A stretch of DNA of 64,000 nucleotides. Source: Escherichia phage SP27. The translations under genes were made by a program, and so were the position numbers. Where the stretch lies: the sequence record LC494302.1. One strand, given 5' to 3'. Shown in pieces: positions 28,867 to 29,277 of this stretch (the stretch's first letter is position 1; each line of letters opens with the position of its first letter). Under the pieces are notes generated by a model. It was not told the origin of the DNA. It ran no database searches and saw only the letters and a program-made list of their open reading frames with translations.

Positions 28867-29277
28867 ATGATTGAAATGGAAGGAACTCTGGTGTATGATC
28901 CAGAACGTGGCACTATGAAAAAGAAGAAGGACTTCTGGTTAGTACTACAACTTCCATTACAGTTGGTTCGATACTACCAGTACTTCATCAGAACTGACTT
29001 ACATATTGATATTAAAGACCCACAATGGGGAGCACATGTCAGTATCGTTCGTGGTGAAGTGCCACCAAATCCAGAGTACTGGAAAAAGTACGATGGAATG
29101 AAAGTAAAGATAAAGTTCAATCCTTGTATTGAGATAGTAAAAGATAAAAAGAATCCAGGTTCATTCTTTATCATTGAATTTGAAGATGATTTCATCACAC
29201 ATATTAGAAATGAACTAGGACTACCAACCAAGTACTTTAAATATCACATCACTGTAGGTAGAACTTACTACGATTAA
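28867..29277 (+). CDS. 2H phosphoesterase superfamily protein (LigT/CPDase-like; Acb1-like anti-CBASS nuclease is one possibility)
   Basis: Two H-x-[S/T]-x motifs at the expected spacing (WGAHVSIVRGE and KYHITVGR) in a roughly 130-aa protein. Confidence 0.5.
   Translation: MIEMEGTLVYDPERGTMKKKKDFWLVLQLPLQLVRYYQYFIRTDLHIDIKDPQWGAHVSIVRGEVPPNPEYWKKYDGMKVKIKFNPCIEIVKDKKNPGSFFIIEFEDDFITHIRNELGLPTKYFKYHITVGRTYYD

Follow-up and report, generated by a model that had tools for sequence, protein, structure and literature searches.

A role in RNA repair has already been published for the 2H enzymes of jumbo phages by Iyer, Anantharaman, Krishnan, Burroughs and Aravind (2021, 2022), who predicted that these enzymes resolve cyclic phosphates (PMC7824862, PMC9503650). 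In the same papers the name SAK is used for a family of HAD phosphatases, citing Burroughs & Aravind 2016; our literature search found no mention of 2H-SAK or of PF22547, the Pfam family that bears this name. The HD domain of the Cca enzymes of E. coli and M. tuberculosis is described, in a passage of PMC10673834 that cites Yakunin 2004, as a 2′,3′-cyclic phosphodiesterase and phosphatase that repairs tRNA 3′ ends. In the viral nuclease Acb1, a substrate lid formed by residues 145-152 and including W147 lies beyond the second HxT motif and closes, together with E141, over the cyclic dinucleotide (PMC9117128).

The locus studied here lies in a 64-kb stretch of DNA (hereafter the window) from SP27, an Asteriusvirus and thus a member of the group of E. 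coli jumbo myoviruses (~350 kb) to which 121Q, PBECO4, G17, phAPEC6 and Sharanji belong. Over positions 27000-31000 the window shares 99.9% identity with phages EC22.5-2 and ECO103 4-12-1, and 96-99% with a further 18 records. The open reading frame reported at 28867-29277 in a preliminary description of this DNA is present exactly as given there, on the + strand and encoding 136 aa (Table 1). Its equivalents (G17_00391, 121Q_531 and phAPEC6 gp294c) carry the label 'hypothetical protein' in every annotated record, and the Asteriusvirus literature that we searched contains no discussion of the gene. H-x-S/T tripeptides occur exactly twice in the protein, as H57-V-S-I and H127-I-T-V, and the earlier claim that HVSI and HITV motifs stand about 70 residues apart is borne out by a spacing of precisely 70 residues. 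Two features are specific to the family. One is the N-terminal hairpin, which falls within the ~50 N-terminal residues that lie outside the match to the Pfam 2H-SAK profile. The other is the position of the C-terminus, D136, which comes 9 residues past H127 and leaves no lid after motif 2.

Table 1. Coordinates of features in the window and, in the last row, in the closest Asteriusvirus genome; distances are from the 2H gene.
Feature	Position	Strand	Basis or remark
RlaP, RNA-ligase-associated Pol-beta nucleotidyltransferase	14963..16195	+	PF10127 E 3e-16; phrog_388 nucleotidyltransferase
Probable transcription unit: five small ORFs of unknown function, 2H gene, LysM-lysozyme, HPF/RaiA homologue	27259..30756	+	Terminator scan; operon structure inferred
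Terminator-like hairpins	27259-27277 and 30730-30756		Both bound the unit; ARNOLD terminators at equivalent G17 positions
2H phosphoesterase gene	28867..29277	+	ATG start, 136 aa
N-terminal beta-hairpin (G6, Y10-D-P12, R14, W24)	28867..28950	+	Conserved columns; predicted strands E2-10, E24-28
First predicted catalytic motif, H57-V-S-I-V-R62 (HxS with Arg at +5)	29035..29052	+	Conservation, predicted strand
Second predicted catalytic motif, H127-I-T-V-G-R132 (HxT with Arg at +5)	29245..29262	+	Conservation, predicted strand
LysM-lysozyme	29413-30372	+	Pfam
HPF/RaiA-family ribosome hibernation factor	30389-30721	+	PF02482 E 3e-10; TIGR00741 36.3 bits, under the 40.9 cut-off
CCA-adding tRNA nucleotidyltransferase	32321..33433	+	PF01743 and PF12627 only; +3.0 kb
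NudE-like Nudix	33542-33943	+	PF00293 E 1e-12; +4.3 kb
Macro domain	34774-35250	+	Weak: Pfam E 0.009; NCBIfam DarG 32.9 bits (cut-off 250); +5.5 kb
Rnl1 and Pnkp	L055:1745-2887 and L055:3984-4916		Record ~99.7-102.9 kb of OR845138.1; four small ORFs between

By our estimate, about 0.3 H-x-S/T tripeptides are expected by chance in a protein of 136 aa, and two such tripeptides are by themselves not significant. A chance pair is ruled out because the motifs are conserved across homologues. Among 21 homologues sharing 41-96% identity, there is no variation at H57, R62, G63, H127, T129, G131 or R132, and at least 90% retain S59. In a set of 41 diverse representatives (25-59% identity) the two histidines, H57 and H127, are the only invariant columns. 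A non-coding or spurious reading frame is likewise ruled out, because the protein matches a PHROG and its family occurs in 76 phage records. A confident AlphaFold2 model computed with the 21-sequence alignment (pLDDT 90.7, pTM 0.82) adopts the 2H fold, the outcome on which the preliminary description had made its assignment depend. Motif 1 is predicted on a strand (E57-62) that follows helix 31-44 and motif 2 on a strand (E126-132) that follows helix 108-116; this helix-then-strand placement is the pseudo-twofold arrangement of 2H enzymes. The protein thus shows the features of the superfamily, with both H-x-S/T motifs conserved and, in the model, a pseudo-twofold alpha+beta fold that places each motif on a beta-strand. 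The invariant histidine pair, the PF22547 match described below and the model together support the earlier 2H assignment. They confirm, as far as sequence and modelling reach, that the gene encodes a real small 2H phosphoesterase, for which fold, motifs, conservation and genomic associations are established and catalysis is predicted.

This protein has one meaningful Pfam match, to PF22547 ('2H-SAK, Swiss Army Knife 2H phosphoesterase domain', the 2H domain of SAK proteins of RNA repair), with an E-value of 1.4e-5 over residues 89-136 only and a score of 25.8 bits that falls 1.2 bits under the 27-bit gathering threshold. The orthologue in Serratia phage BF passes this threshold with 33.7 bits over residues 53-141, and a precomputed table flags PF22547 in 25 of 29 close homologues. 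The protein belongs to PHROG 12204, which is labelled 'unknown function', and no NCBIfam model matches either it or the BF orthologue. When the protein or a 21-sequence profile was compared with the sequences in the PDB, only spurious matches came back (a circovirus capsid, PrgK and L38e) and no related solved structure. Foldseek gave no PDB match at E <= 1e-3, the best matches being Usb1 (E 9e-3, TM 0.44) and LigT (TM ~0.45), and a structure search of BFVD recovered one close relative and otherwise weak 2H matches.

The bacterial RNA 2′,3′-cyclic phosphodiesterases of the LigT/ThpR type, with structures from E. coli (4qak/5ldj), P. horikoshii (1vgj), D. radiodurans (5h7f) and B. subtilis (YjcG, 2d4g), have no sequence-level relation to the phage protein, which has ~40 fewer residues and its C-terminus just beyond motif 2. 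Neither PF13563 nor PF02834 was matched at E <= 10, and neither the protein nor the profile had a PDB sequence match. In E. coli ThpR/LigT, motif 2 reads HxTxxR, the same signature as motif 2 of the phage protein.

Among 1.84 billion cluster representatives, a profile search found 1099 members at E <= 1e-3; the 150 of these that were listed are for the most part free-standing and 130-170 aa long. GenBank contains 76 phage records with a family member. Those listed are of large phages, comprising Rak2-like enterobacterial phages, Bacillus phage G, Agrobacterium phage Atu_ph07, Ralstonia phage RsoM2USA and a 349-kb Vibrio phage. With the 21-sequence alignment as query, a scan of IMG/VR gave 42 loci, most on contigs of 200-600 kb, and a scan of prokaryotes (one genome per species, 185,579 species) gave only 4 loci, all on MAG contigs. 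Because of this distribution across GenBank, IMG/VR and prokaryotic genomes, the family looks essentially phage-borne and is found mostly in jumbo phages. We conclude that the SP27 protein is a predicted metal-independent enzyme of a compact, almost exclusively jumbo-phage family that appears related to Pfam 2H-SAK.

Within the window, the 2H gene sits in a probable transcription unit bounded by terminator-like hairpins (Table 1). The downstream hairpin, which follows the HPF gene and matches a G17 ARNOLD terminator, is a near-perfect palindrome with an 11-bp stem (AAAGGGACAGA...TCTGTCCCTTT) and could terminate transcription in both directions. A promoter scan found 22 sites against 24.3 expected from shuffling, a number not above expectation, and no tRNA gene was found in the 64 kb. 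The HPF/RaiA gene comes directly after the lysozyme gene and is kept in most Rak2-like relatives. Further along, two tandem overlapping reading frames on the + strand (31360-31776 and 31763-32185; 138 and 140 aa) share a segment ('GTLP...FIDDTFGID..YQ') in their C-terminal parts and are probable paralogues. A glutaredoxin gene also lies downstream of the 2H gene, along with the Nudix and Macro genes. The same gene arm carries an HNH endonuclease (20875-21531, +) and a DUF5856 ferritin-like protein (23492-23932, +; E 1.9e-28). Another tandem pair of related + strand reading frames (13535-14056 and 14053-14562) match each other's PHROGs (phrog_18641 and phrog_7868).

The CCA-adding enzyme and RlaP are the only RNA-repair partners of the 2H gene present in the window itself. 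RlaP is on the same genome arm, 12.7 kb upstream of the 2H gene, and the link is loose. It stands alone beside genes for tail fibre and tail proteins (16364-19691) with no adjoining ligase; a 929-aa reading frame beside it was considered as a ligase candidate and rejected, being a tail protein. The CCA-adding enzyme matches the model of the E. coli-type 'multifunctional CCA addition/repair protein' (PRK10885) over positions 1-207 of 409 only; it gives no HD-domain match, and the dipeptide 'HD' does not occur in its C-terminal half. It lacks the HD phosphohydrolase 'repair' half of E. coli Cca, and we infer that it is the downstream partner of the 2H enzyme.

Relatives of SP27 place the 2H gene in a richer context. 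The Rak2/GAP32/CBB/BF-like clade has a block in the order RNA ligase (PF09414), TROVE/vWA (DUF2828), 2H, lysozyme, HPF, CCA, Nudix and Macro, with YqeY between Nudix and Macro in the BF/GAP32-type members. In Rak2/K64-1, GAP32, CBB, BF and fHe-Yen9-04, the ligase (PF09414 with a PHA02142 OB domain) and the TROVE/vWA protein (DUF2828/DUF7788) are encoded directly upstream of the 2H gene (relatives L002/L012-L025), at a site where Asteriusvirus instead has five small reading frames of unknown function (27251-28859 in the window). The PF09414 ligase, TROVE/vWA and YqeY are absent from the whole of the closest Asteriusvirus genome (OR845138.1). That genome encodes a T4-type Rnl1 (PF09511 and PF20819) and a Pnkp (kinase and HAD_PNKP) ~47-50 kb from the 2H gene, which suggests that it invests in tRNA repair; together they make up the classical pair that counters anticodon nucleases, in this case carried by a jumbo phage.

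Associations with tRNA-related genes recur in more distant members of the family. For example, one contig (L006) has the gene order PTH2, 2H, HAD_SAK_2 and CCA-adding enzyme, with HAD_SAK_2 overlapping the end of the 2H gene by 4 bp; elsewhere HAD_SAK_2 lies 7.7 kb from the 2H gene (L004) and Thg1 1.9 kb from it (L010). The CCA gene is at most 3.5 kb away in three separate 2H lineages and RlaP at most 4.3 kb away on two contigs (L040 and L052), the first of which has CCA at 1.8 kb and RlaP at 3.9 kb. Three protein clusters (P0035, P0223 and P0241) of 335 aa carry the 2H domain fused to a C-terminal YqeY domain. Free-standing YqeY genes occur 0.4-5.4 kb away in four further lineages, namely the BF/GAP32-type phages, L005/L009 (1.1-1.6 kb), L042 from Atu_ph07 (0.4 kb) and L052 (1.9 kb). 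In Deinococcus GlnRS the YqeY domain increases the affinity for tRNA and works solely in cis (PMC1865053), and YqeY and the GatB tail are both tRNA-binding modules (PMC1865053, PMC2811023). When the 2H proteins were clustered at 50% identity into 12 lineages, 7 had at least one of eight tRNA/RNA-repair families within 2 kb of the 2H gene, and the other 5 had no informative neighbour. A crude random-placement null of 0.09 per lineage gives a binomial tail of 3e-5, which is only indicative because the choice of families followed inspection of the data and a large lineage has more opportunities to score. The YqeY fusions are a stronger argument than these proximity statistics.

The enzyme most likely acts on RNA, and specifically on tRNA. 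On balance we lean towards the view that it is a 2′,3′-cyclic phosphodiesterase that heals the broken 3′ ends of tRNA or other RNA; its substrate, its product and its pairing with the CCA enzyme are proposed from the context described above. According to this model, metal-independent ribonucleases of the host or of a competitor would leave RNA ends with a 2′,3′-cyclic phosphate, and the 2H protein would open the cyclic phosphate at the tRNA 3′ end. The opened end would be dephosphorylated by HAD_SAK where this is present and by Pnkp in a phage of the SP27 type, after which the CCA-adding enzyme or RlaP could rebuild it or a ligase (Rnl1) could seal it. Since the phage CCA enzyme has no HD domain, the 2H protein would supply in trans the healing step that is missing from it. 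The intact fold and active site, kinship to PF22547, YqeY fusions, repair-gene neighbours, HD-less CCA enzyme, HxTxxR form of motif 2 and basic pI all favour an action on RNA ends. Among the weak points, the tight partners are missing from Asteriusvirus itself, Pnkp already heals cyclic ends, and 5 of the 12 lineages offer no informative neighbour. Of the two functions put forward in the preliminary description, RNA-end processing is the one that we retain, favoured by the YqeY, CCA and HAD_SAK associations, and membership in the Acb1 family (no PF23474) is the one that we abandon.

The case against Acb1 family membership is drawn from several directions, and together they rule it out. T4 Acb1 (gene 57B) scores 202.7 bits on PF23474, and the SP27 protein has no match to this profile at E <= 10. 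When the 2H family was compared by hhalign with T4 Acb1 alone the probability was 0.6%, and against an 8-sequence Acb1 profile it was 12.7% over 35 columns, in which the second lobe of the 2H protein was paired out of register with the first lobe of Acb1; we read this match as a generic resemblance between 2H lobes and not as a sign of family membership. After the second histidine there are 9 residues in the SP27 protein compared with 39 after H113 in T4 Acb1, such that the former has neither a lid nor a counterpart of E141. The motifs also differ (HVSIVR and HITVGR versus HSTICY and HITLSY), no alignment was obtained for the stacking aromatics Y12/W74/F107/W147 of Acb1, and the 2H family is basic (median pI 9.2; SP27 protein 8.5) whereas T4 Acb1 is acidic (pI 5.1). 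Furthermore, on two viral contigs (L036 and L037) a 2H family member and an Acb1 reading frame (Pfam 72.4 bits) lie 4.4 kb apart, the latter matching the 57B locus of 1163 T4-like records. Yersinia phage fHe-Yen9-04 has a 2H orthologue as well as an 'Anti-CBASS protein Acb1', identified as such by its BFVD label alone. One metagenomic phage contig with a 2H member has a Pfam Acb5 match (L010:336-575) 7.4 kb upstream of the 2H gene.

Acb1-like activity could still have arisen by convergence, which is possible but disfavoured. The protein would then be a second, independently evolved viral nuclease that destroys cyclic oligonucleotide signals, those of CBASS or possibly of type III CRISPR or others with 3′-5′ or 2′-5′ linkages. 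It might have a different signal range and serve the Asteriusviruses, which appear to be without Acb1, and its tRNA neighbourhood would be incidental. We regard this as improbable, both in its general form and in full. The profile comparisons and the missing lid and E141 counterpart speak against it, as does the presence of true Acb1 beside a 2H member on the two contigs and, by its label, in fHe-Yen9-04. Moreover, Acb1 (PDB 7t27) is not among the top 50 PDB matches from Foldseek, and fusion to a tRNA-binding domain is hard to square with a small-molecule substrate.

An equally unlikely alternative is that the protein hydrolyses ADP-ribose cyclic phosphate (Appr>p) together with the Macro and Nudix proteins, degrading a by-product of a 2′-phosphotransferase (KptA/Tpt1 or a sirtuin) or a signal derived from ADP-ribose. 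The three genes are syntenic throughout the Rak2-like clade, and a route of the Macro/Nudix type is the textbook fate of Appr>p, both of which count for this possibility. However, L042 is the one case outside the Rak2-like clade in which Macro is close to the 2H gene, the distance to Nudix there mostly exceeds 3.5 kb, and the YqeY fusion points to tRNA instead of a metabolite. The Macro protein of SP27 is itself weakly matched and looks closest to the DarG-type DNA ADP-ribosyl glycohydrolases. Because its best NCBIfam match is the DarG antitoxin and its profile matches are weak, it may be a hydrolase of ADP-ribosyl groups on DNA or elsewhere rather than a Poa1-type Appr-1′′-p phosphatase.

The least probable candidate is other 2H chemistry on RNA, either Usb1-like 3′-to-5′ trimming that leaves a cyclic or 3′ phosphate (for example, to clear aberrant nucleotides from a tRNA 3′ end ahead of CCA repair) or a 2′-5′ phosphodiesterase or ligase, for which the weak Foldseek fold ranking places Usb1 on top, but with likeness at the level of fold only, TM below 0.5 and no match at E <= 1e-3. 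This reading departs from RNA-end healing only in the bond attacked.

Our findings add to the published work on jumbo-phage 2H enzymes by showing that the unannotated PHROG 12204 belongs with them and that fusions or linkage to YqeY, CCA, HAD_SAK, PTH2 and Thg1 recur in this family. Also new are its distinctness from Acb1, with which it coexists, and the lack of the HD repair domain in its partner CCA enzyme. The ~76 phage records labelled 'hypothetical protein' could be renamed '2H phosphoesterase (2H-SAK-like)'. The gene is of use to annotators and would reasonably suit a biochemical study on a small scale, and it will be no surprise to a specialist. If the protein does heal RNA ends, its 136 aa would make it a convenient minimal model for a family of more than 1000 cluster representatives, and host defences or toxins that damage tRNA ends would be a selective pressure on jumbo phages.

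The SP27 protein and its relatives resemble 2H-SAK in that the PF22547 match covers the second lobe with its HxT motif and in that RNA-repair components (HAD_SAK, CCA, RlaP, Rnl, TROVE, Thg1, PTH2 and YqeY) adjoin or are fused to the jumbo-phage 2H members. Unlike multidomain SAK proteins, the 2H members examined are free-standing except for the YqeY fusions, and the contigs examined are those of phages or are of jumbo-phage size. If RNA-end healing is indeed their function, jumbo phages would split tRNA 3′-end repair into separate proteins (2H, HAD phosphatase, HD-less CCA enzyme, PTH2 and Thg1), in contrast to E. coli Cca, which joins end healing and CCA addition in one protein. The proposed purpose, undoing tRNA cleavage by host defences, would be the same as that of the T4 Pnkp/Rnl1 pathway, but for healing cyclic phosphate ends T4 Pnkp uses a HAD-type phosphatase whose fold is unrelated to 2H.
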